Shown: positions 36,879-62,330, counted from the first letter of the stretch. The stretch: 64,000 nucleotides of DNA from Planctomycetota bacterium (GCA_043803085.1 JAZDKM010000247.1:3315-67314); one strand, 5' to 3'. Numbers and translations: made by a program. The notes: generated by a model not told the origin, from the letters alone.

Positions 36879-37121
36879 ATGAAAAACTACACCGCTTCCC
36901 CCCGACTAGTCCTCGCGCTGCTCTTGGCAGCCCTCTTATGGACGGTCGCCCGCGGCGAGGTCCAGAACCGCTGCGCTAATATCGCGGCTATGCCCATTAA
37001 ATCCGTGATGAGCGTCGCCTGCAGTGCGGATGGGGCCACGCTCTACGTGACCGCCGACAATAGCGTCTGGCGTTCCCGTGACTATGGTGATAACTGGGAC
37101 GTCATTCTCCGGTCCCGGTAG
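36879..37121 (+). CDS. Small secreted protein with Asp-box (BNR) motif
   Basis: Signal peptide (...LLWTVARG|E); WRSRDYGDNW. Confidence 0.55.
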   Translation: MKNYTASPRLVLALLLAALLWTVARGEVQNRCANIAAMPIKSVMSVACSADGATLYVTADNSVWRSRDYGDNWDVILRSR

Positions 37122-46147: not shown

Positions 46148-47155
46148 CTATGACGCTTTGCTCACGTATCCGCCCGCCGCGACCTGGGCCGCCTCGGTGA
46201 CCAGCGACAACCATTTGTGTCTATCGTACTGGCGCGTCTGCTGGACGCTCGCATGGCCCGCCAGCTGGGCCACTCGGATACTGTCGATCCCGGCGTCCAG
46301 CATCATCGTGATGAAGGCGCTCCTCAATTCGTGGAACCGGCGCGGTTCCCTGATCCCCGCCCGCCGTTGCAGCGCCCGGAAGCTCCGCGGATGGTTCCCT
46401 TGCAGGTCCCGCAGGGCGCCCCAGTGGCGTGGCCCCGCGAGCCGCTTGCGAATGAACCGCTCCTCGACGCACAGATAGCCTTCCGGCTCTCCGTGCAGCT
46501 CCTTGATCCGGGCGGCGACCAGTTCCTGCAGGGCGACGATCCGCCCGTCGAAGGCCATCGCCGCCGGCAGTCCAATCAGCCGGGCCTTGTGGCCCTTAGC
46601 GCCCCAGGGCAAGGTCTTGTCCCCGCCCTTTTTGTGCTTCAACAGGACGTGGGCCCCGTCCGGGTCGCCGAGCCGGACGTCGCAGACCTGGATCGCCTGC
46701 ATCTCCCCGCGCCGGCAACTGAGCAGTCCGAAGCAGAGCTGGAGCTGCTCCACCGCGCTCGCCACGGCCATCAGCCGGGCCAATTCCCGCGCGGTGAACG
46801 TCTCCCGGGGCGGCTCCTCATCGACTTTCACAGGGCCGATGAAGCCGAACGGATCGACCGTGATATCCCCGCGCTTGCGCAGCCAGGCCCAGAAGGGCCG
46901 AAAATTGTTCAAGTAGCCGTTCACGGACACAGCGCTGCGGTCCTGGCCGAGCTTCTCGCGATAGTCGTCCGCCAGGGCACTGGTCACACAGCGAAGCGGC
47001 AGGTCGAATCCGACCTCGCCGTCGGGCGACCGCACCGGCTGTCCGAACCATTCGAGAAAAAAGCGGCAGGCCCGCCGTTTCATGTCCACGGACGCGGGCC
47101 GCAAGCGATTGCGGGACAGGTAAAGCTCGAACATGGCTTGTACCGACTGTTCCAT
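46148..47155 (-). CDS. int: Tyrosine integrase/recombinase
   Basis: SAM-like N-terminal domain (SVNGYLNNFRPFWAWL); catalytic CRRGE, FHELRS, LAGHAS, TRQY. Confidence 0.9.
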   Translation of the reverse strand: MEQSVQAMFELYLSRNRLRPASVDMKRRACRFFLEWFGQPVRSPDGEVGFDLPLRCVTSALADDYREKLGQDRSAVSVNGYLNNFRPFWAWLRKRGDITVDPFGFIGPVKVDEEPPRETFTARELARLMAVASAVEQLQLCFGLLSCRRGEMQAIQVCDVRLGDPDGAHVLLKHKKGGDKTLPWGAKGHKARLIGLPAAMAFDGRIVALQELVAARIKELHGEPEGYLCVEERFIRKRLAGPRHWGALRDLQGNHPRSFRALQRRAGIREPRRFHELRSAFITMMLDAGIDSIRVAQLAGHASVQQTRQYDRHKWLSLVTEAAQVAAGGYVSKAS

Positions 47156-47280
47156 ATACACTCCTTTCCGTCGGCCCGTGCAAGCCGACCCCAGTGTATC
47201 CTGCGGACAGTCGCCGGACAAGCTATGTCATGTCTCACTCGTACTGGTTATTGAGTTGTCAAAGAGCGCCCGCCCTTCGC

Positions 47281-47562
47281 TCAGAGTAGAGCGAACGCCG
47301 CCAGCGTGAGATCGAGGTACCTCTCGGCCTCGGGCTGCTCGTTCATTTGGCGCCAGACCTCCTCGATCTGGACGATCTCGGCATGGATCTTCGCCTCCTC
47401 CCTCAGCAATCGCTCCCGTTTGGCGGCTAACCTGCCCCGGAAGGCTCCGACCGGCTTGGGCCTTGGGGCGGCTGCCGTACCCTTTATCTGGCCCCCCATT
47501 CCCACGGACTCCTCTTGCGGGTGTGCTGCTTCCTGTGCTTGTGCTGCTTCCTGCTCGGCCAT
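47281..47562 (-). CDS. Hypothetical coiled-coil protein
   Basis: AGGAG RBS; start MAEQEAAQ. Confidence 0.5.
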   Translation of the reverse strand: MAEQEAAQAQEAAHPQEESVGMGGQIKGTAAAPRPKPVGAFRGRLAAKRERLLREEAKIHAEIVQIEEVWRQMNEQPEAERYLDLTLAAFALL

Positions 47563-47600
47563 GTCCGTGTCTCCTGTCTGTGATCCTCTATCATCGTTCT

Positions 47601-47709
47601 GCCCGGCCACAGATGGGCTTGGCGGCTGTCTGCACCGGAGCCGACTCGATGCAGGTGGGCTTTTTACGGCTACCCATGTGCCACTGTCCAAGCCCATCGA
47701 CGGCCGGGC
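47601..47709 (-). ncRNA. Candidate multi-stem leader RNA
   Basis: gcccggcc/ggccgggc and gatgggcttgg/ccaagcccatc outer stems enclosing two hairpins. Confidence 0.4.
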
Positions 47710-47861
47710 CTCATACGCAAGCCCCGGTCCGGCGGGTCATCCTGGGAGATTCGCTGCCGGCCCGGGTGAGCGGCGCGGGCTGGGCGTTGGCCTGTGGTGG
47801 CCCGGTCTGCGTCGCGTGATCCATACCCTTGATCTCCATTTCCAGCCAGTTTGTCGGACGG

Positions 47862-47890
47862 AATGTAGACGGCAAGTGTCCCGCTGTCAA
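47862..47890 (-). promoter_or_regulatory. Sigma70-type promoter of the integrase/recombination operon
   Basis: TTGACA-N17-TACATT with GGGACAC in the spacer. Confidence 0.7.
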
Positions 47891-48189
47891 CGATTTTGTT
47901 GGACTTTCCGGGACACTTTCGGGACACCAGGTCGTCTCACGTTTCGTAAATCGCTTTGTCTACGCCGCTTGCGCGTGACGCGCCCCGGAAAATAATTTTT
48001 CGCGTCCCGGGCTGCCTGTCCCGGAAAGTGTCCCGCCGAAGTGATTTTTTTCTTGCCGCCGGGGGTCTCTCCTCCATCGGGTGCTCCTTTCGCGGAATCG
48101 AGTTGCGCGCTGAAAACCGGATTTCCACAAGCCTCATACCTATATTATAGGCGAACCGCCCGCCGGATCGTTGATAATAATTCCGGCGC

Positions 48190-48789
48190 TCAGAGAGATT
48201 TTTCCGGCTCCTCCTGATCCGCTCCCTCCGGCGGCTCCGTCCGCCAGCCCGCCGTCTGCCAGAAATCGCCCCGGACGGTCTTGGACCGCAGGCGGCCCGG
48301 CTTCCACGGGCGCCGCCGCCGGACGATGACGATCTGGTCCAGGTGCAGGAGGACCGCCCGCGTCAGGGCCGGGATCTCAAGCAGCCAATAGGGCCGGTCC
48401 GTGACGATTCCCGTCACGCAGGAGATCACGGCGGCGACGTTCAGCCGGAGCTGCCCGGCCAGGATCTCGTCCACGTCCCGGATGAACAACGGGTGAATCC
48501 GATACCAGAGGTCCCCTTGCCACGGCTGGCAGGCGACCCCGCCCACCCAGTAGATCCGCTGCCCGTCCGGCGTCGCCGGGCAGTCCGCCTGGAAGGCGAG
48601 CAGGCCCGGCAGGTAGCGGTCCTCCGTCACGGTCAGGACCATGTGCTCCCCGATCCCGAGGTACTGGCCCTTGCCGAGTTCCGGGGAGGGGCCCAGGGGG
48701 AGCGGCCCGGGCGTGCACCGCAGGCGGATCTTCAAGGCGGTCGCCGCCCGGATCAGCTCCACTACGGCCCCGATGTTGCGTGTTTGCAT
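48190..48789 (-). CDS. Hypothetical protein
   Basis: GAGG RBS; start MQTRNIG; last gene of operon B. Confidence 0.55.
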   Translation of the reverse strand: MQTRNIGAVVELIRAATALKIRLRCTPGPLPLGPSPELGKGQYLGIGEHMVLTVTEDRYLPGLLAFQADCPATPDGQRIYWVGGVACQPWQGDLWYRIHPLFIRDVDEILAGQLRLNVAAVISCVTGIVTDRPYWLLEIPALTRAVLLHLDQIVIVRRRRPWKPGRLRSKTVRGDFWQTAGWRTEPPEGADQEEPEKSL

Positions 48790-48793
48790 AACC

Positions 48794-50569
48794 TCAGAAG
48801 CTCTCCACCAGCGCCTGGAACGGCCAGATATTGACGACGTCGCCCGCCTCCGGGGCCGCCGGCAGACTCTCATAGAGCGTGACGACCCGCCCGGCCGTAT
48901 AGAGCCTGATCCTGCCCCAATAAGTCTGCCCCGTCGTGGCGTCCGTAAACGTGAGGATCGTCCCCCGCGGATAGGCGTTCGCCACCGCCGGGAACCCGCT
49001 CGACAATGTGAAGCTCCGGGCGGTGCTCGCCGTCGCGACCGTCCCGGCCTTCAGGGCCAGGCTGCCCGTGACGACGGTCCCGATCTCCGTGTGAATGGCG
49101 GAGAGGCCATAGGTCGCGTGCGTCAGCAGGTCGTACAGGTCGTTCACGTCCCGCGCCAGGTAATCGAGATAGCCCGCCCGCACGGCCGTCAGCCGCCCTT
49201 CCAGCGAATCGACCATCCCTTCCAGGACGGCCAGGTCCGCCGCCAGGGTATCGCCGGCGTTCGGGTCGCCGATCCTGGCCTCGATAGCGTCCACCATCCC
49301 TTCCAGCACGGCTAAGTCCGCCGCGATGGACGCGGCGTTCGGGTCCCCAACGCGGTCGTAGATGTCGTTCACGTCCCGCGTGATCCGGGTGTTCGTAGTG
49401 CCGATATTCGTGGCGAGCGTCGTGGTATAGCCCTGGGCCGTCATCGCGCTCTGCACGTCCTCGACGGACAAGCTCGGCGTCGGCGTGGAGGCGTCGGAGA
49501 CCTGACCGCCCGCCGGGGTGAACTTGTAGTAGGTGGTCGTGTCCGGCGTGATCGCGCCCGCCCAGACGCCGCTGATGACGATGGTATCGTTGGCGTCGTA
49601 ACTGTCCGTGACGGCGTAAACGGTCGAGCCCGCGCCGGTCCCGCTGACCAATTGCACCAGGCCCGTCAGGTTGTCCGCCCCCACGTCCCCGGAGGCCAAC
49701 TGGATCGTATTGGTCGTACCAGCCTGGGCCACGCCCTCGGCCGCCAGGGCCGACGTCGGGGCGTACTCGATCTTGTAGGTGGTCGTGGCATTGGGCGCTG
49801 AACCCGGCCAGGTGTCCAGGATCGTCAGGGCCTTCGTCGTGGAATTGTAGGCCACGCCCGTCCGAATCGCCCAGGCGCCCGTGCCGGTGAGCAGAGTAAC
49901 GGCGCAGGGCGTGAAGGCGTCATCGGCCCCCGGCGTGTCGGCGGCCAGGACGATCGTATTGGTGGTCCCGCCCGCTTGGGCCGTCCCGGTGATCGCCAAC
50001 GGGTCCCCGCCCCCGCCCCTTTGCACATACCACGCCCCGGAGTGTTTCTTCTTATTGTTCGTAAGACTGTCGTCCCACCACTCATCGATGAAGCTGGTGG
50101 CCAGCTCGTCGCTCGTGAAGGCGTTCGAGGCGATGGTAGTGGCCGTGATCCCGCCCGCCGCGAGAGATACCGTAGCGCTGCTCTGGTCGAATACGTGGTA
50201 GGCGCTGGCGTTTCCGAACGTCGGGATGTAGAACACGGCGTCGCCGAACAAGGGAGTTGCTGTGTCGTCATTGACATCGACCGTTACGACGGCGGCGGTC
50301 ATCTCGGTATTCGTGAGTACGAGCGAGAAGGTCCGGCCGAGGTCCGTCACGGCGTTCGTGGCCCGCGCCCCGCTCACCCCGTCCTGAAAGACCCACACGT
50401 CCGCCGCCGCCGGGGCGGTCTCGTAGACCCGCCAAGGCGAGTTGGAGTCGTAGATAGTGAAGTAGAGCGTGTATTGGGTCGCGTACTTCGCGGGCGGCAG
50501 CCAGGTCGCCGGGTAGGCCCCAGAAGCGATAATCCCCAGGACAATTCCAACACCAAGTATCCGTTTCAT
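48794..50569 (-). CDS. Signal-peptide-bearing fibre-like protein
   Basis: MKRILGVGIVLGIIASGAYP; Ig-like N-terminal domain, three GTAQAG-type beta domains, coiled repeats (GDPNA..IAADLAVLEGMVD). Confidence 0.7.
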   Translation of the reverse strand: MKRILGVGIVLGIIASGAYPATWLPPAKYATQYTLYFTIYDSNSPWRVYETAPAAADVWVFQDGVSGARATNAVTDLGRTFSLVLTNTEMTAAVVTVDVNDDTATPLFGDAVFYIPTFGNASAYHVFDQSSATVSLAAGGITATTIASNAFTSDELATSFIDEWWDDSLTNNKKKHSGAWYVQRGGGGDPLAITGTAQAGGTTNTIVLAADTPGADDAFTPCAVTLLTGTGAWAIRTGVAYNSTTKALTILDTWPGSAPNATTTYKIEYAPTSALAAEGVAQAGTTNTIQLASGDVGADNLTGLVQLVSGTGAGSTVYAVTDSYDANDTIVISGVWAGAITPDTTTYYKFTPAGGQVSDASTPTPSLSVEDVQSAMTAQGYTTTLATNIGTTNTRITRDVNDIYDRVGDPNAASIAADLAVLEGMVDAIEARIGDPNAGDTLAADLAVLEGMVDSLEGRLTAVRAGYLDYLARDVNDLYDLLTHATYGLSAIHTEIGTVVTGSLALKAGTVATASTARSFTLSSGFPAVANAYPRGTILTFTDATTGQTYWGRIRLYTAGRVVTLYESLPAAPEAGDVVNIWPFQALVESF

Positions 50570-50571
50570 AA

Positions 50572-51810
50572 TTAGGTTCTCCTGTGAAACCACCAGTTTT
50601 TTATCTTCTGGTTGCTGCTTGGAATCATGATCTGATCCATTAAACCCAGCGAATCATTGATGGTTCGTGTGATTGACCCGCCACCCGGAACGAAATCGTA
50701 TGACATGAGATCGCTCAGCCCCAAGTCGGCCGCCACAGTCTTAAGGCCTAGATAGACAGGGTCTATTGAGTCTGTGACGCCGAGAACTTCGCCCCTCGTC
50801 TTTTCGAGAACTTGGATTGTCGCCGCGTCGTCTGTTAGGCCCAACTCCTCCGATAGAGTTCTTATCATTGCCGAAAGCGCAGAGGAATCATCGCTTAGCG
50901 CCAGCCCTTCTTCCAAAGTCCGCAAAATTCCTCTCAGGGCGGTTTGCTCGTCGGCAATCCCCAATGATTCAGCCTGCGTCCTTGACGCTTCGCTCATCTT
51001 GGTGCGGGCCTCGGAAATGCCTACGGACTCGTCAAAATTTCTGGATACAGTCTGAAGCAAGGTTCGACTGTCTGTAACACCAAGAGCATCATTGATCGTG
51101 CGTACGATAGGGCTAGCGACTTCCTGGAAGGCTACGGCGATGGCCCCATAATCATCACTGGTAGCTTCCGTCCACGACATTGACTGGGCGCCCGTCCCGG
51201 ATTTGACATAGTACTGCCCGGCACCGCCATAGGCGGCAATGTCCTCTTCGTACAAGGAGGTGCCCGTTCTCGCAGTCGGAGCAAAACCGTTGTCGCCAGT
51301 TGCCACGACGGCGAAGATCAAGCAGCCGGCTGCTACTGTCGTTACGGAGACGTTCGGATTCGCGCCTGTGGTCGCGTTGACGCCGGACGAATCAAGCGCA
51401 CAAGTCGAGTCCGCGCCTGCATTGCCGGTGGCTACATAGACCCACATTGTTCTGCCGTTGTCATTGGGAACATTAACCGTCAAAGACTGGCTGGTTGGCG
51501 GGGCCAGCAGGTACCACATCTCTACCGACGTTTCCGTGACCCCTTGTCGAGATTGTGCTTGGGTCAGATCAACGCTGTTGTAGGTAGGCGCGCCGCCGGT
51601 GCGGGCCGTGACGCCGGCATAGAGGACCATGACCACGAGGACCTCGGCGTCCGCTCCGCAAGTATAGGATGCGGACGCGGCTGAGGTCGTGGTCGTCTGC
51701 GCCGTAGCCGGGATGCGAGCCTTAGTGTCATAGGTGAGCGCACCTTCTGCCAGCCGGGGCCAGAGCGCCAGCAAACCTACCAGAGCGCAGAACATAACTC
51801 GCTTGTTCAC
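50572..51810 (-). CDS. Signal-peptide-bearing protein with 20-aa repeats
   Basis: MNKRVMFCALVGLLALWPRLAEG|A; about 8 RT...E.LG.SD repeats; ends NWWFHRRT. Confidence 0.7.
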   Translation of the reverse strand: MNKRVMFCALVGLLALWPRLAEGALTYDTKARIPATAQTTTTSAASASYTCGADAEVLVVMVLYAGVTARTGGAPTYNSVDLTQAQSRQGVTETSVEMWYLLAPPTSQSLTVNVPNDNGRTMWVYVATGNAGADSTCALDSSGVNATTGANPNVSVTTVAAGCLIFAVVATGDNGFAPTARTGTSLYEEDIAAYGGAGQYYVKSGTGAQSMSWTEATSDDYGAIAVAFQEVASPIVRTINDALGVTDSRTLLQTVSRNFDESVGISEARTKMSEASRTQAESLGIADEQTALRGILRTLEEGLALSDDSSALSAMIRTLSEELGLTDDAATIQVLEKTRGEVLGVTDSIDPVYLGLKTVAADLGLSDLMSYDFVPGGGSITRTINDSLGLMDQIMIPSSNQKIKNWWFHRRT

Positions 51811-52397
51811 TAGGAACCCAGATAGGTCACATTCCAGGTGACAGTTAGGGTATCGGCGGCCCCTTTGTTGATGGCGCCGGAGAATACGGCAATTGAGAAC
51901 GTCTGCGTCGCGTCCGCCTCACCTGCGTCGGTCGTATTGGCACAGATCGAAACGCGGTTGATATTCGAGTTCGTTGCTTCGCCCGCGCCCCATTGGTTGC
52001 GGAATTGGCAGATGTTCGCTGCCGCTCCTTGTTTGGGCGTGGTATCGTCCAGGGCCTGGGCCGATCCTGAAACATAATCGCCGACGGCAATGTAACTGCC
52101 GGCCCCGCTCTTGGTGGCCGTCGTGGTCGCCGTGCCCAGTTTCATACCCCAAGTCGTATAGGCGGCTGTGTAGATCGCGGACTTGGCAAAGTCATCGCCC
52201 TTGTCAGTGACAATGTTGCGAAAGACCTGGCGCTCGATGAGATTGCCATACTGATCGTGCCTTTCAACGACGACCTCGCCCTTCAAAGAGGTCTTATCGG
52301 TCTTACCTGAAATGGGGACCGCTTTTTGGCTCACGCCATAGGTCAGCGACAGGGCGCTAAGCGCGTATACGGCCGTCAAAAATATTCCACGTTTCAT
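51810..52397 (-). CDS. Signal-peptide-bearing phage tail-fibre-base-like protein
   Basis: MKRGIFLTAVYALSALSLTYG; LKGEVVVE...NIVTDKG...MKLGT...INKGAADTLTVTWNVT. Confidence 0.65.
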   Translation of the reverse strand: MKRGIFLTAVYALSALSLTYGVSQKAVPISGKTDKTSLKGEVVVERHDQYGNLIERQVFRNIVTDKGDDFAKSAIYTAAYTTWGMKLGTATTTATKSGAGSYIAVGDYVSGSAQALDDTTPKQGAAANICQFRNQWGAGEATNSNINRVSICANTTDAGEADATQTFSIAVFSGAINKGAADTLTVTWNVTYLGS

Positions 52398-52440
52398 TTT
52401 TTCCCTTTCGATTCTCTATGGAACTATTACTCTTTTCCGG

Positions 52441-53253
52441 CTAATTTCGCCTGCGCCACCACCAGTTGTTGACGTTGGAGGAGCCGAACTTCCCCTCCCG
52501 GATTTGCATGATCTCGGCGCTGGTCAGAACCCGATTAAAGACGACCAACTCATCGATCTGGCCGTCGAAGTGCCGCCAAGCGAAACTGTCGACGGGTTCT
52601 CGGCCTATCGTGAACGGATTGGCGTCACACAGCGGGTCCAAGCCTGTACTCGACGTGTCCGCTGCCTGCTCAGCGGTTTCGTCCCATAAGCGTATGCCGT
52701 AAGTACGGGCCGAACCGTTGATCCACCAAGCGACGTGGTACCACTGGTCCATGACGAGAGTAATCGTGCCCAGAGTCAGCGACACAACAGTCCCGCCATC
52801 GACCGCGACGGTCATGCCGATTTTGGGGCTGGCACCCACCGCGATTTCTCCGATGGTTTCCATGCTGATGCCGTTGGCGGCCTTGCCCCAGATGGCATAA
52901 TTGTAGCTCGCGCTGTATTCGTCGGGCTTGATCCAGCAGCAGATAGTCAAGGTCTTGTTCGCCGTCCCGCCCTTCAGTGGGAAACCGGCGTCCAGGTCCG
53001 CGTCGGGGCAATTGAAAAACTGGCTGCTGGTCCGTACGAAATCGGCGCTCGCCGCCCCTTCATGGTAGTTGTCGGTATCCGCCGTCGGCGGCGACACGGA
53101 AGCGGTCAGGGTGTTCGTGCCCTTGCTGTCGGTGGTCAGCGCGCCGTTCTCGAAGCGCCAGACCGCCTTGCAGTTCGGGTCCGAAATGAAATCGTTCGCC
53201 GCCCACCCCGGCAGCGCCAGCAGCAGAATGAAAAGCAGTATCGCTCGTTTCAT
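52441..53253 (-). CDS. Signal-peptide-bearing LamG/concanavalin-like protein
   Basis: MKRAILLFILLLALPGWA|A; AVWRFE, TICCWIKP, WYHVA, FDGQIDELVVFNRVLT; ends NWWWRRRN. Confidence 0.8.
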   Translation of the reverse strand: MKRAILLFILLLALPGWAANDFISDPNCKAVWRFENGALTTDSKGTNTLTASVSPPTADTDNYHEGAASADFVRTSSQFFNCPDADLDAGFPLKGGTANKTLTICCWIKPDEYSASYNYAIWGKAANGISMETIGEIAVGASPKIGMTVAVDGGTVVSLTLGTITLVMDQWYHVAWWINGSARTYGIRLWDETAEQAADTSSTGLDPLCDANPFTIGREPVDSFAWRHFDGQIDELVVFNRVLTSAEIMQIREGKFGSSNVNNWWWRRRN

Positions 53254-53371
53254 CGTTTCGCTCCTATCCAGCGGGCCCGCACGTAGTTGCGGCCCCAGCG
53301 GACCAGTTGCGCTGTCCCTTCGACCAGCCGGTCCAGAATCACCCGGCTTATGAATTGACCTTTGGGCCGTC

Positions 53372-53827
53372 TCATCTGCGCACGCTCCCGCATCCGATGG
53401 TCGGCGGCTGGTTCGGCCGCAAGGCCAGGATGACGTAAGTCCCTTTTCTCGTTTTGGCCAGGGCCGTCGGGCCGGGCTCATCCGTCGCCGTCAGCGTGAT
53501 ATAGTGCACGCCGACCGCCGGCGTGAACGTCACGTGGATATCGTTGCCGTCCACGGCGAGCGCGTACTTCGCCGGCTCAAGGACCGTCACCGTCACCGGG
53601 TCGCCCTCCGGGTCGCAGTAGTTGGCGTCATAGAGGCACGGGACCCCGGCGTCCACGATCTCCCAGCCCAGGCACAGTTGCCGGCCCGTCTCCGGGTCCG
53701 TCGCGATCCGCGCTGGATCGATAGTGAAAGGCGCCCCGATGGGGTCCTTGAACTGCTGTTCCGGACACACCCGCCCGAATACCAGCGGCGTCAGGACCAG
53801 GCCCGCCAAGAGCAAAAAGCGTTTCAT
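53372..53827 (-). CDS. Signal-peptide-bearing Ig/cadherin-like protein
   Basis: MKRFLLLAGLVLTPLVFG; DPEGDPVTVT...TFTP...ITLTATD...NQPP. Confidence 0.65.
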   Translation of the reverse strand: MKRFLLLAGLVLTPLVFGRVCPEQQFKDPIGAPFTIDPARIATDPETGRQLCLGWEIVDAGVPCLYDANYCDPEGDPVTVTVLEPAKYALAVDGNDIHVTFTPAVGVHYITLTATDEPGPTALAKTRKGTYVILALRPNQPPTIGCGSVRR

Positions 53828-53938
53828 CGCACACGTCCCTTTCCAAGAGCGGGGACCGCCGGGGAGGAGGACTTGTCCGCCGGAGGGAGGGCGGACTTAA
53901 AGGGCCGGCGGCCCCCAAGACCAGGAAAGAACCTCCTT

Positions 53939-56900
53939 TTACTGGCTCGCCTGGAGTCCGACGCGGTACTTCCAGCGCACCCCGTATAAATCGAAGTTGT
54001 CGTCGTCCGTATTGGCCGTCACTTCCACGTAGAGCACGTCGTCGGCGTCCAGGTCGAGGTCGTTGCCGATGCCCGTAGCGTTTGTGACCAGGTTGCACCA
54101 GGCCCGGGCCGCCCCGTTGGCGACCAGGATCGTGTCCGTCAGGATCGGCGCCGTATTGCCGTACTCGAAGACCCGCACGTCGATGTCCACCTGGGCCGCC
54201 TCCTGCTCCAGGATGTCGAATTGCAGGACGAGGTCGGCTTGCGTGCCGGTATCGATCCAGGTAGCCGGGAGCGGCAGGGTGAAGCGGAGCATATCCGCCC
54301 CTTCTGCCACGCTGACATAGCCCTCCGTAGCGCCGAGGCCATCGACGCCCGCCAGTCCGACGCCCAGATTGCCCATCCCGCCGCCGACGCGGATTTCCGT
54401 AGTGCTGACGCAGGAAACGGGGAATACCTGGTAGCGATGGGTCTTGCTGTTCGTACTGACGGTGATTCCGGTGGCCGTCGTGGTGCTCAAGGTGATATTG
54501 CCCGTGCCCGCTTTCAGGGCGAGCGAGGAGGCGGTCGTCTCATTGCCAAGTGTGACCGTCTGCTCGACGGCGTTGGAGAACAGGGCGACAGCCCCGGAAG
54601 CGGTCATCGTGAGATCGTCGGTGGACGTGATACTCATATCCCCCGTCCCGGACTGTACGACCGTGGCGGAGGCGTCCGTAGTGGAGCCGAGAGTAACAGT
54701 CTTGACGCCCGCCCCGTTGCCGACCCCGATGGCCTGGGCCCCCGCACCGCCAATCGTCACAGTCCCGGTCGTCGTGCCCGTCCCGATATTGGTCACGGCC
54801 CCGCCGGCCGTGGCGTTCAGGGAGAGCACCCCAGCCGTTGTGCCGGAAAGTATGGTGGTTGCAGAGGTTGTCGTATTGGAGCCCAGGGCCACAGTCTGCG
54901 CCCCGCCCCCATTGCCGATATTGATGGTATGGGCCCCTGTGCCCGTGCCGAGGTCCAGCTGCATACCGGCGCTGGATTCGCCCACTTTGACCGTGCCGGC
55001 CTGCGCAGCGTCCCCGATAGTGATCGTAGTGGCCGCCACACCGTCGATGGCGATGTTCCCGGTCCCGGCGTGCAGAGCAAGTGAGGTGGCGCCGGTCTCG
55101 TTGCCGAGGGTGATACCCTGAGCGACAGCCCGTGCCCCCAGGAGGAGAGCGTCGGTGGAGGCGACGTTCACATCGCCCGTACCACCGTAAAGAACGATGG
55201 ACCCGGCGGCTGCACCATCGCCGATGGCAATGGTCTTGGCCCCCGTGCCGCCCGTGCCGATGTTCACCGTACGGGCCCCGGTCCCGGTCCCTAAATCCAC
55301 TTGACCGGTAGCGCTCGATTCGCCGAATTTCATCGTGCCCGTCTGGTCGGTTTTGCCGACGGTGATGGTAGTCGCGGCCACGCCTTCCATTGCGATATTC
55401 CCAGTGCCCGCCTTCAAGGTGAGCGAGGAAGCGCCGGTCGCGTTCCCCACGTAGACATCCTGGGCCTGCGCTTTGGCCCCGACGAAGAGGTCGTCCGCAG
55501 AGACGATATTCACATCGCCCGTACCGCTGTAAAGGAAGGTAGCCCCGGCGCCGGCCTGGTCGCCAATCGTGATCGTCTTGGCCCCCGTCCCGCCGGTAGC
55601 GATATTGACGGTTCGAGCGCCGGTCCCGGTCCCCAGATCGACCTGGCCGGTCGCGCTGGACTCGCCAAACTTCACAGTTCCGGTCTGGTCGCTCTTACCA
55701 ACTGTGATCGTAGTGGCGGCGACGCCCTGCATATCGATATTGCCGGTCCCGGCGAACAAGCTCAAAGAGCTGGCCGCACTGATACTGCCGATATCGATGA
55801 CCTGGGCGGCCGTGCCGCCGTTGCCGATATTGATGGTGTGGGCGCCCGTGCCCGTGCCAAGATCGAGTTGCATGGCAGCACTGGACTCGCCCACCTTGAT
55901 CGTGCCGGTTTGGGCGGCGTCGCCGACCGTAATCGTAGTAGCAACCACGCCATCCATCGTGATATTGCCCGTGCCGGCGTAGAGCTTCAGGGAGCTTGCC
56001 CCGGTTTCGTTACCTACCGTGATGTCCTGGGCGGCGGAATTGGCCCCAACTTTGAGATCGTCGGTCGAGGTCAAGTTCAGGTCGCCCGTGCCGGACTGGA
56101 TCAGGATGGACCCGGCCGCGGCGGCGTCGCCGATTGTGATGGCCTTGGCCCCGGTCCCGCCCTGGCCGATATTGATCGTCATGGCCCCGCTCCCGCCGAT
56201 AGTGACGGTCCCGGTGGACGTACCGCCGTTGATGCTCGTATCGAAGTTGCTGCTGTCGTTGAGCGAGAGCGCCGCCCCGGAGACCGTCGCGCCGAGCGTC
56301 CCGGTGAGCAGGCCGTCCATGCCGATAGAGCCGATGTTCGTCATATTCCCGCCGGTCGAGATGTCCCAATCGGAGGAGTTGATGGCGACCGTGCCGGACC
56401 CGCCGCCGATAGCGGTGGCCCCGCTGCTCGTGCCGGTATTGATATTGGTCGGCTGGTTGTTGTTGACGTTGATGAGCACGCCGTTGGACCCGGAATTGAT
56501 CGTGGTCGTACTCGTGGTGTTCGTCGAGCCGAGCGTCACGCTCTTGGCCCCGGCCCCGCCGGCGATAGTCACCGTCTGGGCAGTGTCACCGTTGGCGATC
56601 CCGACCGTGCCGGTGGAAGTGCCGTTGGCGATATTGACGGGCTGGGCGGCGTTCGAGGCGTTGATATTGACGCCCCCGGAACCGGAATAGAGCGTCGTGG
56701 TTGAGGTCGTATTCGTGGAGCCAAGATTGACGGTCTTGGCCCCGGCCCCATTGCCGATGTTCAAAATTTGGGTCCCGGTCCCGCCGATCCCCACGGCCCC
56801 GGTCGTCGTCCCGCCGCCGATACTCGTGGTGTTCGTCGTGGCCGAATCGTTCAGACTGATCGTGCCGGCGGCCGTCAGGTCGGTAACACCGGAGACGGCC

Positions 56901-57487
56901 CCGGCCGCAATGTCGATCGTCGTACTGTTGAGGGCGAACGTACTGGTATCCGAACCCATTGCGATATCGGGAACGGTCCCGTTGGTCCACGACAGGACGT
57001 TCGTATAGGAGGCCACGGCCGTCAGATCGTAGACCTTGATGGAAGCCGACTGCGCCGTCGTCGTCGTGGACATGATGTCCACTCCGTTGTTCAGAGTGAC
57101 ATCACTCGTGATCGTCCCGCCGGCGAACGTCCCGCCGTTGGCGACCCAGGAGAGCACGCCCGCATCGGTGGAACTGAGGACCTTGCCGGTCACATCGGCA
57201 TAGGCGGTCGGCAGGGTCAAGATCAGGTCCGCCGACTGGTCCCCGCCCTGGATTTTGGTGTAATAGGTCGCCCCCGTGCTCTCCAGGATCGAGACAGCGT
57301 CAAAGGGGGAAGTGCCTTCATAGAGTCCCTCCAGCGTGCCCCACAGGTTGTAGAGCGGGTCGCTGGAAGTGGCGGAGCCGAGGTAGGCCCGGTTGTTCCG
57401 GTAGTAGTTCTGGTCGTAGGTCAGCGCCCCGAGGACCGGGGCGCTGCTCAGAACGGCCAGCAACAGCATGAACAGAATGCGTTTCAT
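53939..57487 (-). CDS. Large signal-peptide-bearing Gly/Thr-rich beta-repeat (fibre-like) protein
   Basis: 1182 aa; MKRILFMLLLAVLSSAPVLG|A; many GTG-x-TINIG repeats. Confidence 0.75.
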   Translation of the reverse strand: MKRILFMLLLAVLSSAPVLGALTYDQNYYRNNRAYLGSATSSDPLYNLWGTLEGLYEGTSPFDAVSILESTGATYYTKIQGGDQSADLILTLPTAYADVTGKVLSSTDAGVLSWVANGGTFAGGTITSDVTLNNGVDIMSTTTTAQSASIKVYDLTAVASYTNVLSWTNGTVPDIAMGSDTSTFALNSTTIDIAAGAVSGVTDLTAAGTISLNDSATTNTTSIGGGTTTGAVGIGGTGTQILNIGNGAGAKTVNLGSTNTTSTTTLYSGSGGVNINASNAAQPVNIANGTSTGTVGIANGDTAQTVTIAGGAGAKSVTLGSTNTTSTTTINSGSNGVLINVNNNQPTNINTGTSSGATAIGGGSGTVAINSSDWDISTGGNMTNIGSIGMDGLLTGTLGATVSGAALSLNDSSNFDTSINGGTSTGTVTIGGSGAMTINIGQGGTGAKAITIGDAAAAGSILIQSGTGDLNLTSTDDLKVGANSAAQDITVGNETGASSLKLYAGTGNITMDGVVATTITVGDAAQTGTIKVGESSAAMQLDLGTGTGAHTINIGNGGTAAQVIDIGSISAASSLSLFAGTGNIDMQGVAATTITVGKSDQTGTVKFGESSATGQVDLGTGTGARTVNIATGGTGAKTITIGDQAGAGATFLYSGTGDVNIVSADDLFVGAKAQAQDVYVGNATGASSLTLKAGTGNIAMEGVAATTITVGKTDQTGTMKFGESSATGQVDLGTGTGARTVNIGTGGTGAKTIAIGDGAAAGSIVLYGGTGDVNVASTDALLLGARAVAQGITLGNETGATSLALHAGTGNIAIDGVAATTITIGDAAQAGTVKVGESSAGMQLDLGTGTGAHTINIGNGGGAQTVALGSNTTTSATTILSGTTAGVLSLNATAGGAVTNIGTGTTTGTVTIGGAGAQAIGVGNGAGVKTVTLGSTTDASATVVQSGTGDMSITSTDDLTMTASGAVALFSNAVEQTVTLGNETTASSLALKAGTGNITLSTTTATGITVSTNSKTHRYQVFPVSCVSTTEIRVGGGMGNLGVGLAGVDGLGATEGYVSVAEGADMLRFTLPLPATWIDTGTQADLVLQFDILEQEAAQVDIDVRVFEYGNTAPILTDTILVANGAARAWCNLVTNATGIGNDLDLDADDVLYVEVTANTDDDNFDLYGVRWKYRVGLQASQ

Positions 57488-57528
57488 CGTAAAATCTCCC
57501 ATAGGAGTTGCTCTTGCTTGTTCGTTCG

Positions 57529-57999
57529 TCACGCGGTGTACCCGCTGGCCATCTTCTGGAGCCGCCCGGTCGGGCACAAAGGCCGCATCCCAAACCAGAC
57601 ATCGACCGTCAAGCCGGTCGCCGCCTCGCTGATAACGTCCCAGTGCACTTCCAGATACTTGTGCAGGCCCCAGCGGGGGAACGCGAGTGAGAACCGGGCT
57701 TTGGCCGTCAGCATGGCCGCCGTCAGCGGGGCGAGCACGGAACCCAGGGCGCCGAGGCAGATCAGCCCGCTGGAAAAGTCCACTGCATCGCTCGTAATCA
57801 CACTCAGAATGGCGCCGGAAGCCATGCCGCCGGCCGGCGTACCGACTTGGACATTGAACCAAATCTCACCGAGGCCCTCATCGGTTACTCCGCCCTCTTC
57901 CATATCGAAGAAGTTGTCGGCGGTGAAACTGTGCTTGTCGGTAGTCAGGGCCTCGTTGTCCCAGACTTCCCAATTTTTGTCGATCAGACTCATCGTCAT
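57529..57999 (-). CDS. Capsid cement protein (Bbp16-like)
   Basis: 156 aa directly after the capsid gene; LID...V...A, TSDAVDFSS, L..KYL pattern. Confidence 0.7.
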   Translation of the reverse strand: MTMSLIDKNWEVWDNEALTTDKHSFTADNFFDMEEGGVTDEGLGEIWFNVQVGTPAGGMASGAILSVITSDAVDFSSGLICLGALGSVLAPLTAAMLTAKARFSLAFPRWGLHKYLEVHWDVISEAATGLTVDVWFGMRPLCPTGRLQKMASGYTA

Positions 58000-58045
58000 A
58001 TCCTTTCAGACATCATTTGTCGGTTTCTCGTTATCAGGCCCCCCA

Positions 58046-59050
58046 TCAGGTGATGGGGCCCTCGCTGGTCGAGATGGCGTCGCAGCGGAAAATCGGCGCG
58101 CCCATGAACGTCAGGACCGGCACGCCGCTCAGGCCCTGCCCCACGTCGAAGTTGACGTTGTTCTTGTCCTTGAGCCGGACCTGCATCTGCGTCCTGATCT
58201 CTTTCGTACACAGGATGGTCGTGCCGCGCCGGAACTTGCCGAGGTTCAGCAATTCGATCAGGTCATTCTCGTCGAACGTGTTGGGGCCGCCGAGCGTGGC
58301 GTTGATATTGGCGATCCGGCCGATCCGCAGCTCGTCCCGAACGACGAGACCGAGATACCACTGGAAGAGGGTGCGGTAGACGAGCAGCCCCTTCGTGCTG
58401 TCGTCTTTCTCGGTGGTCCAGACTTTGCCGTTGCCGCCGTCCGCATTGGTGTCTATCACGAGTCCGTACTGCCCGCGCTCGACGCCGTCCGGGTAAATGA
58501 AGAAACAGGCGTCGGTATCGAAATCAATGACATAGATGGAAGTGCCGCCGGAATTGCCGCCGTCGATCACCATCGTCTGACTGAGCGTGGTGAGGTACTG
58601 CTGGAAGCCGTCGAACCGTTCCGGGTAACTCGTGGTCGTTCCGGTGATCAGGCTGCTCCAGACCTGCTCCGTCAGGCCCTGGACGAACGCCATGTCCTCC
58701 TGGCGCCGGGCCTGCTCACGTTTGGCGGACCCGCCGATGGAGTCGATCAGGTCGGCGTTCACTTCGGAGAGCGCCTTGAGCAGGGCGCAGTTGAAGGTCA
58801 CGACCTGAGTCGTGGAGGCTTGCGAAGCGACGCCTTCGCCGAACTTGATCCAACTGCCGGTCGGCAGACTGGTACGCCGGTTGACGATGTGCTGGTACAG
58901 GGGCTTGTTGCAGGGTACGGCCGGAATCCGGCTGATTTCCGGCAGTACCTGGTCCATGGCCTCGAAGATGGGCAGGAAATCGCCCTTCGGATCGAGGCGC
59001 TTGGCGAGTTCGCCGAAGCCGAGTTGGGATGCTACGTTGATTTCCGCCAT
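58046..59050 (-). CDS. Major capsid protein B (BPP-1 Bbp17-like)
   Basis: LAKRLDPKG, RTSLPTGSW..FGEGV, E.FDG, GTSIY, WYLGLVVRD..IGRIANI, G.PI.RCDAI..E. Confidence 0.9.
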   Translation of the reverse strand: MAEINVASQLGFGELAKRLDPKGDFLPIFEAMDQVLPEISRIPAVPCNKPLYQHIVNRRTSLPTGSWIKFGEGVASQASTTQVVTFNCALLKALSEVNADLIDSIGGSAKREQARRQEDMAFVQGLTEQVWSSLITGTTTSYPERFDGFQQYLTTLSQTMVIDGGNSGGTSIYVIDFDTDACFFIYPDGVERGQYGLVIDTNADGGNGKVWTTEKDDSTKGLLVYRTLFQWYLGLVVRDELRIGRIANINATLGGPNTFDENDLIELLNLGKFRRGTTILCTKEIRTQMQVRLKDKNNVNFDVGQGLSGVPVLTFMGAPIFRCDAISTSEGPIT

Positions 59051-59052
59051 TG

Positions 59053-59240
59053 CGGTACTCCTTACTCAACGAATCAAGTTGTCACTTGGGTCGGAGTAAG
59101 GAATCCGCACGCGGCGGGCTTGACTCCTGGCGCTTACGTGGGCGGCTTATCGCCCGCCCGTTTCTCTAAACGGGCCGAAGCATCAGGCCCTCTAGGTGAG
59201 GGGAATCTGAATTACGAATGGCCCTCTGGGCGAGGGGGTA
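59053..59240 (-). promoter_or_regulatory. Structured leader of capsid gene B
   Basis: Two CCCTC-N5-GAGGGCC hairpins and a CCTTACTC/GAGTAAGG stem that covers the RBS. Confidence 0.5.
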
Positions 59241-59244
59241 CTGC

Positions 59245-59580
59245 TTATCTCGGTAGTACGATCCTCCGGGGCCCTATCACTGCGGGCCCGCAGGCCGGCA
59301 GGGCCGTGAACAGGAAGTCGCCGCTCGCCGCGTCTTTCACGATCCGTACCGCGCAGTCGCGCGGGTATTGGCCCAGCACCTCTTTCGGGACGTGCAGGGC
59401 CGTCGTGCCTGTCATGCCCTGTAGTTGCGTCAGGGCCAGGTGCGCGATCGTGCGATAACGAATCACTTCCAGCCGCAGGGCCTTGACCTGCGGGTCCAGG
59501 CAGCAGCGCTTGTACTTCAAACCGCTCCCGCAGGGGCAGGGCCCGTTGCGGCCGACCGGACTGTTGTTCGGGGCGATCAT
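59245..59580 (-). CDS. SEC-C motif protein
   Basis: VGRNGPCPCGSGLKYKRCC. Confidence 0.8.
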   Translation of the reverse strand: MIAPNNSPVGRNGPCPCGSGLKYKRCCLDPQVKALRLEVIRYRTIAHLALTQLQGMTGTTALHVPKEVLGQYPRDCAVRIVKDAASGDFLFTALPACGPAVIGPRRIVLPR

Positions 59581-59831
59581 AAACACCTCAGCAGGTCGAT
59601 GACTATTGGTACTGCCACCAGGAGGACCGGCCCTGATACGAACGTGAGGGCCATACCGACAATCAGAACGGCATCCAGGGGCGTCACGCCAACAATCACG
59701 CCGCGCTCGTTGCGCGGTCCTCTGTTCATGCGCCACCACCACCATTCCCGCGCAAAGTACCACCGGACCTTGAGACTCGTCACAAACTCAGACAGTTTGT
59801 TCCTTTGGAGTTGGTCGTTCGGGGCGCTCAT
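59577..59831 (-). CDS. Small membrane protein
   Basis: C-terminal hydrophobic helices; coupled to the SEC-C gene. Confidence 0.45.
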   Translation of the reverse strand: MSAPNDQLQRNKLSEFVTSLKVRWYFAREWWWWRMNRGPRNERGVIVGVTPLDAVLIVGMALTFVSGPVLLVAVPIVIDLLRCL

Positions 59832-60140: not shown

Positions 60141-60914
60141 TCATTTCTTCTCCCTCATCTCCGCATAGAGATTGCCGCCGCCCAACACCGGCCCACCGGA
60201 CGGGCCCGGCGCGCCGCCCGTGCCCATCTTCATAAGCGCGGCCTCGTACAACGCCCGCAGCAGCGGCAACTCGATCAGCCGGTCGCCGTGCATGATCCGG
60301 GCCGCGAACTTCTCCCAGCCGGCCGTATCGATCTTGCCGTCCTTCGTGAACTGGCCCTGGAGGTACTGCTTAACCAGCGTGAGCCGACTGGCCGCCAGGT
60401 CCTTATCGCCGCCGCAGTCTTCGTTGAGAAAGGTCTTGTAATTGTTGTCCGTCATGCCCTGAATGACCTTCTCGCGATGCGCATTCAGACGCCGGACGAG
60501 GCCCACCTGAACGTTCAGCAGGTCCTGCACCGTCTTCGGATCGACGCCCCGCTCGTGGGCCAGCTTGCGGAACTCGGTCATGCCCTCTTCGTCCACGAGC
60601 ACGTCCTCGGGCACTTCGATCTCGTAGCCCTCGGGCGTCTCCGGGACACCCCGGCGCTTGCGGTCCCAAGTCTCGATCTCGGCGGTCTGCTCCTTAGTCA
60701 ACTTGCCGGGACCGTCCGGCAGGTGATAGGGCTTGCCCAGCCGCTGCATCAGGTGATGATGGTCCTTGAAGGAGGCGTCCTCGTCCTTGAACTTGGCGAA
60801 GCTCTTGACCGCCTCCGGGTTCGCCCGGAAGTATTCGTGCTGCGCGTGCCAGGTCTCGCCGGTTTGACCGTCGGCGGCGGTATCCGCAACGGTTGTGGCA
60901 GCGGTATCAGTCAT
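60141..60914 (-). CDS. Capsid scaffolding protein B
   Basis: Start MTDTAATT; RGVPETPEGYEI...FRKLAHERGV pattern of BPP-1-like scaffolds. Confidence 0.75.
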   Translation of the reverse strand: MTDTAATTVADTAADGQTGETWHAQHEYFRANPEAVKSFAKFKDEDASFKDHHHLMQRLGKPYHLPDGPGKLTKEQTAEIETWDRKRRGVPETPEGYEIEVPEDVLVDEEGMTEFRKLAHERGVDPKTVQDLLNVQVGLVRRLNAHREKVIQGMTDNNYKTFLNEDCGGDKDLAASRLTLVKQYLQGQFTKDGKIDTAGWEKFAARIMHGDRLIELPLLRALYEAALMKMGTGGAPGPSGGPVLGGGNLYAEMREKK

Positions 60915-61252
60915 GGTTGTCCTCCTTGCTCTTGTTGCCCACCAGGCCCTTCCTGAACGCATTCTTCGACGGGCGGCGGCGGGGCGTACTTATCGACTAT
61001 CGCCTGGGCCGTCCGCTGCTCCTCGGGCGTCAGGCCACTGCGAATCCGGCCCTTACGATTGATGTACCTCCGCACGGCCGGGCACTTATCGCCCAGGGTT
61101 ACGAGAGGTTGGTCGGCCGGCAGGTCCTGCGGCGACGGCAGTACCGCCGCATCCGGCGGGGGCGCCGCAACCGGGGCGGCCCGGGCCCGCTGGAGCGCGA
61201 AGAACTCGTCCGGGTTGACCCAGCGACCCTGGAAGTCCAGTTTGACCGTCAT
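60911..61252 (-). CDS. Hypothetical protein
   Basis: Coupled ORF; KGRIRSGL motif. Confidence 0.45.
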   Translation of the reverse strand: MTVKLDFQGRWVNPDEFFALQRARAAPVAAPPPDAAVLPSPQDLPADQPLVTLGDKCPAVRRYINRKGRIRSGLTPEEQRTAQAIVDKYAPPPPVEECVQEGPGGQQEQGGQP

Positions 61253-61841: not shown

Positions 61842-62330
61842 TCAGTTTCCTTTATCCGCAACGACATCAAACCAGTCCTGGCAGACCGTGCAATGGTAGA
61901 TATGGCAGGTCCCGCCCAGCCGGTCCTGCGCCCAGGCATGGCCCCCGAGCCGCTCGCAAATCCGGCCCTCCTCGATCAACTTGTCGATCAACTCGTTCGG
62001 TACGTCCCAGAGGGCAAAGCCCTTCACATTCGGAAAAAGACAAGTGCCGTAAGGGGTAGGCAACTCCACGTCGTTGTAAGTCAAGAAAGAAGAAACAGTG
62101 GCCGGTGTGGCCGCGGAGACAGAGACAAGGTCATTCGTTTCGTCGTCAATGTCCGTGTCATTGCCGTTAGGCCCGTCCGAGTCAATGTCAATGTCCATAC
62201 TGAACGCGCCCGTAGTGTTGCCGAGCGACACTTGTCGAGATCGGTACGGAATAAAGGGGTTAGGGCCAAAGAACAATAGCCACCCAACGGCAAATACCAC
62301 CCCAACAATCGCAATCTTACGTTTCGTCAT
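61842..62330 (-). CDS. Membrane-anchored protein with C-terminal Cys/His cluster
   Basis: N-terminal TM helix; CERLGGHAW...CTVC. Confidence 0.5.
   Translation of the reverse strand: MTKRKIAIVGVVFAVGWLLFFGPNPFIPYRSRQVSLGNTTGAFSMDIDIDSDGPNGNDTDIDDETNDLVSVSAATPATVSSFLTYNDVELPTPYGTCLFPNVKGFALWDVPNELIDKLIEEGRICERLGGHAWAQDRLGGTCHIYHCTVCQDWFDVVADKGN

Follow-up and report, generated by a model that had tools for sequence, protein, structure and literature searches.

Sec-type leaders on candidate fibre and lectin genes in the virion module of a BPP-1/epsilon15-like podophage from a Planctomycetota genome

Introduction

Morphogenesis of tailed phages is held to be wholly cytoplasmic, and their virion proteins are taken to lack export signals. 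In podophages of the BPP-1/epsilon15/BcepC6B type, a GP7-type capsid gene (PF20911) is followed by a cement gene and the portal belongs to PF12236; in BcepC6B, adaptor (phrog_394), nozzle (phrog_376) and internal virion protein (phrog_418) come next, and the fibre genes stand after the ejection proteins. Here, we describe a 64,000-nt stretch of DNA (the window; positions 3315-67314 of the 83,090-base contig JAZDKM010000247.1, C247) from the metagenome-assembled genome (MAG) GCA_043803085.1 of a Planctomycetota bacterium. It carries a head module with the same capsid type, the same cement position and the same portal family. Six genes that follow the cement gene (g1 to g6, 48794-57487, minus strand) all begin with a Sec-type leader, and their sequences suggest that they most likely form an appendage cassette (fibre, lectin and receptor-binding type) of a BPP-1/epsilon15-like temperate podophage.

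The relatives of this module share the BcepC6B order of adaptor, nozzle and internal virion protein, whereas the window itself shows none of the three downstream. The clade differs from BcepC6B in an insertion of two to seven genes with leaders that separates cement from adaptor; among the 46 genes of BcepC6B, only gp19, besides the o-spanin, has a leader-like N-terminus. Identity of the window capsid to that of any cultured phage is at most approximately 31%.

Phage proteins with export signals are known from other settings. The filamentous phage proteins pIII and pVIII are virion proteins with cleavable leaders, and their particle is assembled at or outside the inner membrane; these phages differ in being non-tailed, with single-stranded DNA, in being extruded without lysis and in having no icosahedral head to pass the membrane. 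The exclusion or receptor-masking lipoproteins of the T5 Llp type are phage-encoded, exported and active at the host surface, but they are small single proteins, not fibre-like, and encoded outside the head-tail module. To our knowledge, phages of Planctomycetota are almost unstudied. Lysis proteins (endolysins, spanins) are, like the genes described here, late phage products that use the host Sec system, but they are enzymes or membrane fusogens, neither fibre-type nor tail-hub proteins and not virion components. According to PMC6116005, the Sec-exported lysis proteins Lys44 of fOg44 and the signal-arrest-release (SAR) endolysins stay outside the cytoplasm until the holin fires. A search of the full-text literature, which did not cover subscription literature or supplements, returned no account of a tailed phage whose tail fibres or nozzle carry a leader.

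Results

Six consecutive genes begin with signal-peptide-like leaders

The six genes, listed from the cement gene outward, are as follows (the arrow marks the predicted cleavage site).

53939-57487, minus strand: g1, 1182 aa; leader 1-20 (MKR...VLG↓ALTYD), conserved N-domain, Gly/Thr-rich beta repeats, C-terminal domain
53372-53827, minus strand: g2, 151 aa; leader 1-18; small, possibly Ig-like, with 5 Cys in the mature part
52441-53253, minus strand: g3, 270 aa; leader 1-18; LamG/concanavalin-like lectin domain; C-terminus ...NNWWWRRRN
51810-52397, minus strand: g4, 195 aa; leader 1-21, then about 16 aa of linker; mature domain of a highly conserved phage family
50572-51810, minus strand: g5, 412 aa, GTG start; leader 1-23 (AEG↓ALTYD); beta-rich N-terminal half, then repeats of about 16 aa; C-terminus ...NWWFHRRT
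48794-50569, minus strand: g6, 591 aa; leader 1-17 or 1-20; beta-sandwich, two 'GTAQAGG' beta domains, coiled coil 369-502, C-terminal beta domain

A preliminary description of the window had reported six co-directional open reading frames (ORFs) that start MKR or MNKR and continue with a hydrophobic core and a small-residue site, and this was the case in all six. Each leader has a basic n-region, a hydrophobic core of approximately 10-15 residues and small residues at -3 and -1 (VLG↓A, VFG↓R, GWA↓A, TYG↓V, AEG↓A and ASG↓A in g1 to g6). The anatomy expected of a signal peptidase I (SPase I) substrate, namely a basic n-region, an h-region of approximately 7-15 residues, small -3/-1 residues and a total length of approximately 18-30, was found in all six by reading of the sequences and by a heuristic of our own, which is not SignalP. 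In no case does the h-region end in a lipobox, L-(A/S/T)-(G/A)-C. The twin-arginine translocation motif, S/T-R-R-x-F-L-K, was likewise found in none of the six: they have K-R, n-regions of two or three residues and Leu-rich cores. Some relatives begin MRR, yet their n-region is equally short.

Motifs resembling Shine-Dalgarno (SD) sequences (AGGAG, GGGAG or GGA-rich) stand 9-13 nt 5′ of the starts of g1, g2, g3, g4 and g6; g1 has an extra in-frame ATG five codons upstream, which would merely extend its n-region. The gaps from cement through g6 measure 41, 111, 118, 43, -1 and 2 nt and all genes are co-directional, which agrees with the tight packing with capsid and cement described before. Promoter-like or terminator-like sites in 47500-59200 were no more frequent than in shuffled sequences, and no minus-strand site fell between two cassette genes.

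Leader calls were made with this heuristic, a crude one, plus reading by eye. Applied to 22 phage genes of the window, it flagged six, which were exactly g1 to g6. The base rate among 1970 ORFs of the MAG outside the contig was 10.6% when the first start was used and 27.5% when any start within the first 100 codons was allowed; six flagged genes in a row would thus have P = 1e-6 to 4e-4 if independence is assumed. In the cultured relative BcepC6B, 2 of 46 genes were flagged, the o-spanin among them.

Many leader-bearing proteins also share an aromatic and arginine-rich C-terminus with no hydrophobic helix, such as NNWWWRRRN in g3 and NWWFHRRT in g5. Similar ends (YQEERRRRP, GWLLQILLRRR, DLRRWAA) occur among leader-bearing relatives (G041 13583-14323, P0015, P0018 and P0312-P0314). 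We considered the WW..RRR tail as a host-wide or PEP-CTERM-type sorting signal and rejected it: it has no hydrophobic helix, and ends of the form W[WFY]..RR were found in 3 of 5566 ORFs of the MAG, one of them g3 itself.

The same protein families occur without leaders elsewhere

The g6 family gave 40 matches, and the 25 closest all carry a leader of 17-32 aa (22 called by the heuristic and 3 by eye). Most of these leaders end in an AXA-type site (ASA↓T, VGA↓T, AQA↓V, AKA↓D, AEG↓D) that abuts the conserved mature start WLPPAKYAT.YTLYF. Mean pairwise identity in the family was 33% in the leader vs. 50% in the next 40 residues. The distant homologues P0027-P0040 have no leader. In a small family ending ...VKGR, the member at L004 10944 has an SPase I-type leader and the member at L021 7668 has the lipobox LLGC (MRRALFFMALLLLGCSAS).

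The g4 family comprised 211 homologues, of which the best 120, 64-80% identical over the mature domain, were examined. Among these 120, a leader was present only in the window protein, P0312, P0313, P0314 and P0318, and approximately 115 others were leaderless. The leaderless homologues are approximately 165 aa long and start at the first strand. They adjoin giant leaderless fibre genes in 6 of the 11 viral contigs that hold them, and in those six contigs 1 of 84 ORFs was flagged by the heuristic, a dubious call. The g4 mature domain is shared with conventional fibre clusters, in which proteins of approximately 165 aa lie next to giant fibre genes, and only the window-type versions have the leader.

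The g1 N-domain (residues 21-130) had 269 matches at E ≤ 1e-3 among 1.84 billion representatives. Of 23 matches fetched, those that align at their own N-terminus have a leader of approximately 20 aa followed by A(M/L)TY, whereas 93 of the 150 best matches have no leader. Residues 44-110 recur up to 14 times within large proteins. The module (…TLPTAYA..G.VLSSTDAGVLSW) is shared with conventional leaderless fibres, often repeated many times; some of the leaderless proteins are conventional tail fibres, one with an end that by eye resembles an endosialidase chaperone.

The preliminary description had proposed a comparison with homologues from other hosts as a check on the leaders, and the more distant homologues of g4, g6 and g1 did prove to be leaderless proteins of ordinary fibre type. 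On sequence grounds, the leaders appear as an addition to phage fibre families that are leaderless elsewhere. They are likely to be genuine Sec signals cleaved by SPase I, and a conserved, selected trait of an uncultured phage clade.

A precedent surfaced in the Burkholderia phage BcepC6B: gp19 (L019 20959-22032), annotated as a tail fibre protein and matching the tail-fibre family phrog_11393 (2.3e-14), begins MKKLIAILLAVPALALGATL, that is, MKK, a hydrophobic stretch and ALG↓A, which is signal-peptide-like. It would be the one cultured case of a leader-like N-terminus on a protein of a tail-fibre family.

Domain content of the six proteins

The domain labels given before held in part. The lectin domain of g3 was recovered as LamG (PF13385, 1.4e-17), and this part also matched phrog_8510, 'virion structural protein' (4e-7); g3 homologues with leaders are present in L010, L020 and L025. 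The Ig-like label of g2 corresponds to a Big_9 match below the Pfam cut-off (E 0.0018, 19.6 bits vs. 23.6), and g4 belongs to phrog_5417, a family of unknown function (4e-12). No Pfam or PHROG family matched g1, g5 or g6, and no homology to known fibre or tail proteins was found for g2 or g5; the Atlas clusters nearest to g5 are 94-100% viral. An Atlas lead for g4, a cluster with the automatic name 'Podophage GP4 fiber I protein gp80 domain-containing protein' (0.95), was confirmed neither by Pfam, nor by a PDB profile search, nor by a structure model. The AlphaFold2 model of g4 was poor, with a mean predicted local distance difference test (pLDDT) value of 45.5 from a 33-sequence alignment.

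In the AlphaFold2 model of g6 (mean pLDDT 73.5), a leader helix precedes a beta-sandwich and two beta domains, and a coiled coil of 130 residues leads to the C-terminal beta domain. Compared with BFVD, the model gave 22 matches at E ≤ 1e-3, the top ones being a 'Pectate lyase superfamily protein' (2.1e-11) and a 'Tail protein' (2.5e-9) of uncultured Caudovirales. Residues 360-591, modelled as a parallel trimer, scored 0.66, vs. 0.00 for the best of 3 controls. In calibration, 20 of 30 same-chain pairs of solved structure attained 0.66, as did 1 of 23 solved single chains, but the g6 trimer used its own alignment and three copies, unlike the calibration. The trimer runs shared at least 91% of contacts, with partner pLDDT of at least 80. 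The model supports a fibre-like trimer for g6.

Searches by tblastn with g1 (first 250 aa), g4 and g6 gave no match in 50,697 cultured or deposited phage records. Named sources of homologues were one 'Planctomycetota bacterium' MAG for g6 and one 'Sedimentisphaerales' for g4.

Leader-bearing cassettes recur across a phage clade

Capsid relatives were found in IMG/VR contigs L003-L006, in GTDB contig L010 and in L009, from a genome of the order of the host. Searches with the g1 N-domain and the nozzle added viral contigs L020, L021 and L025-L027, and L035 from a genome of the same family. L010 is a 7.5-kb MAG contig labelled Gemmatimonadota; its binning is uncertain because the label is a single one on so short a contig. 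The habitats in which contigs of this clade occur are aquatic and groundwater. The gene after cement opens with MK(R/K), followed by hydrophobic residues and then A(M/L/Y)TY, in each of the loci L003/G041, L005, L009, L010, L020 and L021 as well as in the window. In L035 it reads AAMTN; in L004 it has a leader, the motif lying outside the region read. Leaders were counted on the genes from cement to adaptor or to the end of the locus.

Window: 6 of 6 post-cement genes with leader
G041: 5 of 6 post-cement genes with leader
L004: 3 of 5 post-cement genes with leader
L005: 2 of 4 post-cement genes with leader
L010: 2 of 3 post-cement genes with leader
L020: 5 of 7 post-cement genes with leader
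L021: 2 of 2 post-cement genes with leader
L035: 4 of 7 post-cement genes with leader
L009: 1 of 1 post-cement genes with leader

The nine loci together have leaders on 30 of 41 such genes, a manual tally of N-termini that is no statistic because the loci are kin. Adaptor, nozzle and ejection genes are present in G041, L004, L021 and L035. As to whether the closest homologues might be ordinary chromosomal secreted proteins, these loci show them to be phage genes in the same synteny.

A complete relative and its tail nozzle

The relative G041 is a viral contig of 61,628 bp, 100% complete by CheckV, from a temperate podophage with the gene order of BcepC6B. Its terminase, portal, scaffold, capsid, cement, a 130-aa protein and the adaptor (phrog_394) are leaderless, as are the internal virion protein (phrog_418) and three large proteins at the positions of the BcepC6B ejection proteins. 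Leaders are present on five of the six genes between cement and adaptor, on the nozzle and on the next tail protein, of 913 aa. The G041 gene at 13583 has an F5/8 type C domain. No leaderless receptor-binding candidate was found in G041, and no further fibre-like gene among 7 further large ORFs scanned in the rest of the genome.

The G041 nozzle matches phrog_376 (1.3e-173), with profile position 3 aligned to residue 25; residues 1-24 are therefore an extension. This leader is conserved in four distinct phages (G041, L024, L025/L026 and L027) whose nozzles are 50-73% identical. In two of them, an in-frame start codon lies at the predicted cleavage site, AMGA↓S/T (L025:2983-3030 and L027:2989-3036). 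In this clade, as far as sequence can tell, essentially every candidate receptor-binding protein appears to stand behind a Sec-type leader, and sometimes the nozzle does too.

The head module, its local state and its host

The head genes and their surroundings in the window are the following.

62327-64000, minus strand, running past the window end: portal (Pfam Head-tail_con PF12236, 2.7e-40), 57% identical to the G041 portal
L001:1027-2514, just beyond the window: large terminase, TerL (phrog_2, 3.4e-29)
60141-60962, minus strand: scaffold-like gene, a label given by position and homology (59% identity to G041 6397-7209); a Pfam search gave no match
59245-59598, minus strand: small SEC-C-motif protein between scaffold and capsid (Pfam SEC-C PF02810, 4.6e-8, above cut-off)
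58046-59050, minus strand: major capsid protein, epsilon15/BPP-1 type (Pfam GP7 PF20911, 5.5e-49; phrog_212, 4.8e-37)
57529-57999, minus strand: capsid decoration ('cement') protein, 156 aa, no leader (profile match to PDB decoration and cementing proteins)
46148-47221, minus strand: tyrosine integrase (Pfam Phage_integrase, 1e-9), where relatives have adaptor and nozzle genes

The earlier labels 'capsid' and 'cement' were thus confirmed, the former by PF20911 and the latter by a profile built from nine loci that matched PDB 8cjz_B, 'Capsid Decoration Protein' (3.1e-7), and 3j4u_H, 'cementing protein' (0.027). A pairwise comparison of cement with BcepC6B gp09 was not significant (E 0.32).

Homologues of the SEC-C protein lie at L004:6084-6437, L020:3471-3785, L010:486-851, L005:479-838 and L003:7206-8153; those of L004 and L020 also match PF02810, and the G041 homologue carries an HNH_3 endonuclease insertion. 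The gene was observed in 6 of 9 leader-bearing loci and in 0 of 3 leaderless comparison modules (BcepC6B, L037 and L038), the loci being kin. The SEC-C motif is the zinc-binding tail motif of SecA, and SEC-C motifs are found in many unrelated proteins.

After g6 come a 199-aa ORF of unknown function and small ORFs, and then the integrase; in this interval, two minus-strand ORFs of unknown function, 48190-48794 and 47281-47697, stand at the adaptor site of the relatives. The only nozzle homologue in the MAG is on a 3.9-kb contig (C383) and has no leader. Because the module runs without adaptor, nozzle or ejection genes into an integrase, the local copy may be a defective, rearranged or mis-joined prophage; we regard it as probably a defective or rearranged copy of a phage integrated in a Phycisphaerae genome. 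The case for a virion role rests mainly on the relatives. No long direct repeat of attachment-site type stood out in 25000-49000.

Three public DNA runs from two studies contain part of the window, the best one 0.50 of the sampled words; no RNA run containing it was listed among public runs. In run X1, two short Logan contigs cover 48479-49099 across the g6 stop codon, at a depth (approximately 2-6) too thin to check the junction. One Logan contig of this run departs from the window sequence at 48583, downstream of g6, which may mark a variant junction, although the data are thin.

The MAG (4.7 Mb, 481 contigs, 64% GC) has a RecA closest to entries named 'Phycisphaerae bacterium' and 'Planctomycetota bacterium', with no other phylum among the named hits of the best 120 listed. 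By RecA, the host is placed in Planctomycetota, class Phycisphaerae. An assignment through DUF1559 was dropped in favour of RecA, having given 3 weak matches only.

A second phage module and other observations

A second, unrelated phage-like virion module occupies window positions 1-25527 (minus strand) and L002, with a higher GC content at third codon positions (approximately 0.9).

23554-25527, minus strand: large terminase (phrog_38, 2.2e-34)
13431-15989, minus strand: tail-fibre protein (phrog_892, 3.3e-14), with leader MKRVFLFACLLALLRLPPALG↓E
11120-13069, minus strand: tailspike-like protein

None of the 8 large ORFs scanned in this module had a Pfam match at 1e-4, and a search for relatives of the fibre at 13431-15989 gave one short match. 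That a second type of phage on this contig also has a fibre with a leader hints that the trait may be linked to the host. Elsewhere in the window, a ResIII/DEAD helicase (37102-39432, minus strand) has an intein-like insert (Intein_splicing, 2.7e-7, and PT-HINT; residues approximately 127-414) between its N- and C-domains. A 22-nt repeat of the GATGATYGATGATT type (family D2) has five intergenic copies, at 27518, 28476, 44076/44090 and 45126, in the early/recombination region; it may be regulatory.

Discussion

Under the reading that we favour, the cassette proteins would be produced along with the rest of the late virion operon, would leave through the cytoplasmic membrane by export, would fold and trimerise in the periplasm, and would act as receptor-binding appendages of the phage; in some relatives, the nozzle would take the same export route. 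DNA-filled, adaptor-capped heads would meet the exported parts only after holin or lysis breaches the inner membrane, because the parts would until then lie in separate compartments. Classical in vitro complementation of fibreless particles follows the same logic as such late joining of fibres. An appendage role is the most economical reading: the genes stand in the late head-tail module and belong to fibre families, no other candidate for receptor binding was found in a complete genome, and the nozzle has a leader as well. Export, cleavage, membership in the virion and the place of joining are steps that we infer, and the whole chain, in which the proteins are phage appendages, are exported and join the particle outside the cytoplasm, is advanced tentatively, as a possibility that stops a little short of being probable. 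The Sec-like leaders, the conservation across a clade and the phage homologues of the preliminary description have stood; its two proposed mechanisms, export followed by addition at lysis and reuse as a host-surface appendage, are inseparable by sequence.

Several observations weigh against the appendage reading. Tailed phages assemble in the cytoplasm, and an exported nozzle is hard to reconcile with stepwise assembly of the podovirus tail. Six other nozzle homologues have no leader (L021, C383, L028, L029, L030/L035 and L034), and L037, a prophage from the same order with a related nozzle, has no leader-bearing genes. On contig C247, adaptor, nozzle and ejection genes were not found by tblastn with the G041 proteins. 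The heuristic has false positives; for instance, it flagged the adaptor of G041 and the ORF that follows g6, and 10 of its 15 calls in the g4 family were wrong. The Cys content of G041 proteins (1.21% with leaders vs. 0.65% without) gives no clear sign of periplasmic folding. Folds offer little help as well: a Foldseek search of PDB with the g6 model gave nothing at E ≤ 1e-3, just small generic beta-domain matches, and PDB profile searches were empty for g4 (E ≤ 1) and g6 (E ≤ 0.1). Finally, the g1 N-domain is 59-75% identical across phages whose capsids are 21-29% and nozzles 32% identical and whose adaptors show no significant match. Because its identity stays high while these proteins diverge, it tracks no obvious docking partner; in part it is a widely repeated fibre module.

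The lack of co-variation with capsid, cement, adaptor and nozzle also means that the g1 N-domain could bind a conserved host structure, and this favours proteins that are exported but never part of the virion. They would be late envelope or surface proteins, lectin-like and fibre-like, in the dying cell, where they might mask or destroy the receptor, keep progeny from binding to cell debris, block superinfection or weaken the envelope so that progeny can leave. The leaders would be equally real, the carbohydrate-binding domains (LamG in g3, F5/8 type C in G041 13583) would suit such a role, and the known Sec-exported phage proteins act on the envelope, as do the signal-peptide and SAR endolysins (PMC6116005) and the spanins. 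However, the complete G041 would be left without any receptor-binding protein, and a full-length nozzle homologue has the same kind of leader in four phages. Within the late module, the cassette has the head genes on one side and the adaptor on the other, the g4 and g1 families sit in ordinary fibre gene clusters, and a set of six to eight large genes would be costly for proteins with an accessory role. We consider all these non-virion roles together rather unlikely.

A more radical form of the export hypothesis is split assembly, which we rate as unlikely, slightly below the non-virion roles. Heads carrying portal, adaptor and internal proteins would fill in the cytoplasm, and the whole distal tail, made up of the fibres, to which the G041 subgroup would add even its nozzle and the tail protein encoded next, would be exported by Sec, preassembled in the periplasm and docked after the membrane is breached. 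The phage SEC-C protein may, in that case, bias the host Sec machinery by steering it to this cargo.

Export would be unnecessary altogether if the hydrophobic N-termini were uncleaved structural or membrane-active helices, which could, for example, anchor the proteins at the membrane during assembly or insert into the host envelope at infection, with cytoplasmic assembly as usual. Such helices would keep the textbook route and account for the nozzle leader; the leader core of the G041 g6-like protein, at approximately 19 residues, is anchor-like, and BcepC6B gp19 has a similar N-terminus in an otherwise ordinary virion module. In all six window proteins, however, cores of 10-15 residues combine with basic n-regions and small -3/-1 residues, and cores of this length are too short for a membrane anchor. 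The AXA sites abut conserved mature starts, one family has a lipobox variant, g4 homologues with 65-80% identity work without a segment of this kind, and the leader sequence is poorly conserved, which is unexpected for a structural element. We judge uncleaved helices quite improbable.

A further alternative would give each gene two products, an exported long form with the leader and a short leaderless form, made from an in-frame start close to the cleavage site, that builds the virion in the cytoplasm. Two isoforms from an internal start are on record for LysA of Ms6 (PMC6116005). Among the g1 orthologues, mature position 2 is most often Met (A-M-T-Y), and the L025 and L027 nozzles have an ATG at the cleavage site AMGA. 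Residue 38 of g4 is encoded by TTG; the homologues P0314 and P0318, which have leaders, carry Met at this position, and the leaderless homologues have a Met no more than one or two residues away from it. In g2, there is a GTG at residue 20. Some genes could accordingly give rise to both forms. The scheme fails for g1, g3, g5 and g6, which have no ATG, GTG or TTG from the hydrophobic core to residue 45 (CTG only, in g1, g3 and g6), and in the nozzle genes of G041 and L024 no further start codon lies between leader and conserved SFNAGE motif. Dual products are thus very improbable. A chance or gene-calling artefact, in which the true starts lie downstream and the hydrophobic stretches are untranslated, might be suspected in a genome of high GC content, where spurious ORFs abound and starts are ambiguous, but it is almost certainly wrong given six N-termini conserved in kind across dozens of homologues on independent contigs, the SD-like motifs before the called starts, four of six genes without downstream starts and the low base-rate probability of six leaders in a row.

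Fibre families that are leaderless elsewhere thus appear, from the sequences compared, to have gained leaders on entering this clade. If their products are virion parts, completion of the tail must occur outside the cytoplasm, which would be a new assembly route with consequences for the oxidative folding of fibres, the timing of lysis and phage engineering. Otherwise, no receptor-binding protein can be recognised in these phages, an outcome that would be equally puzzling. Annotation pipelines that drop proteins with signal peptides as 'not structural' would mis-annotate such phages.

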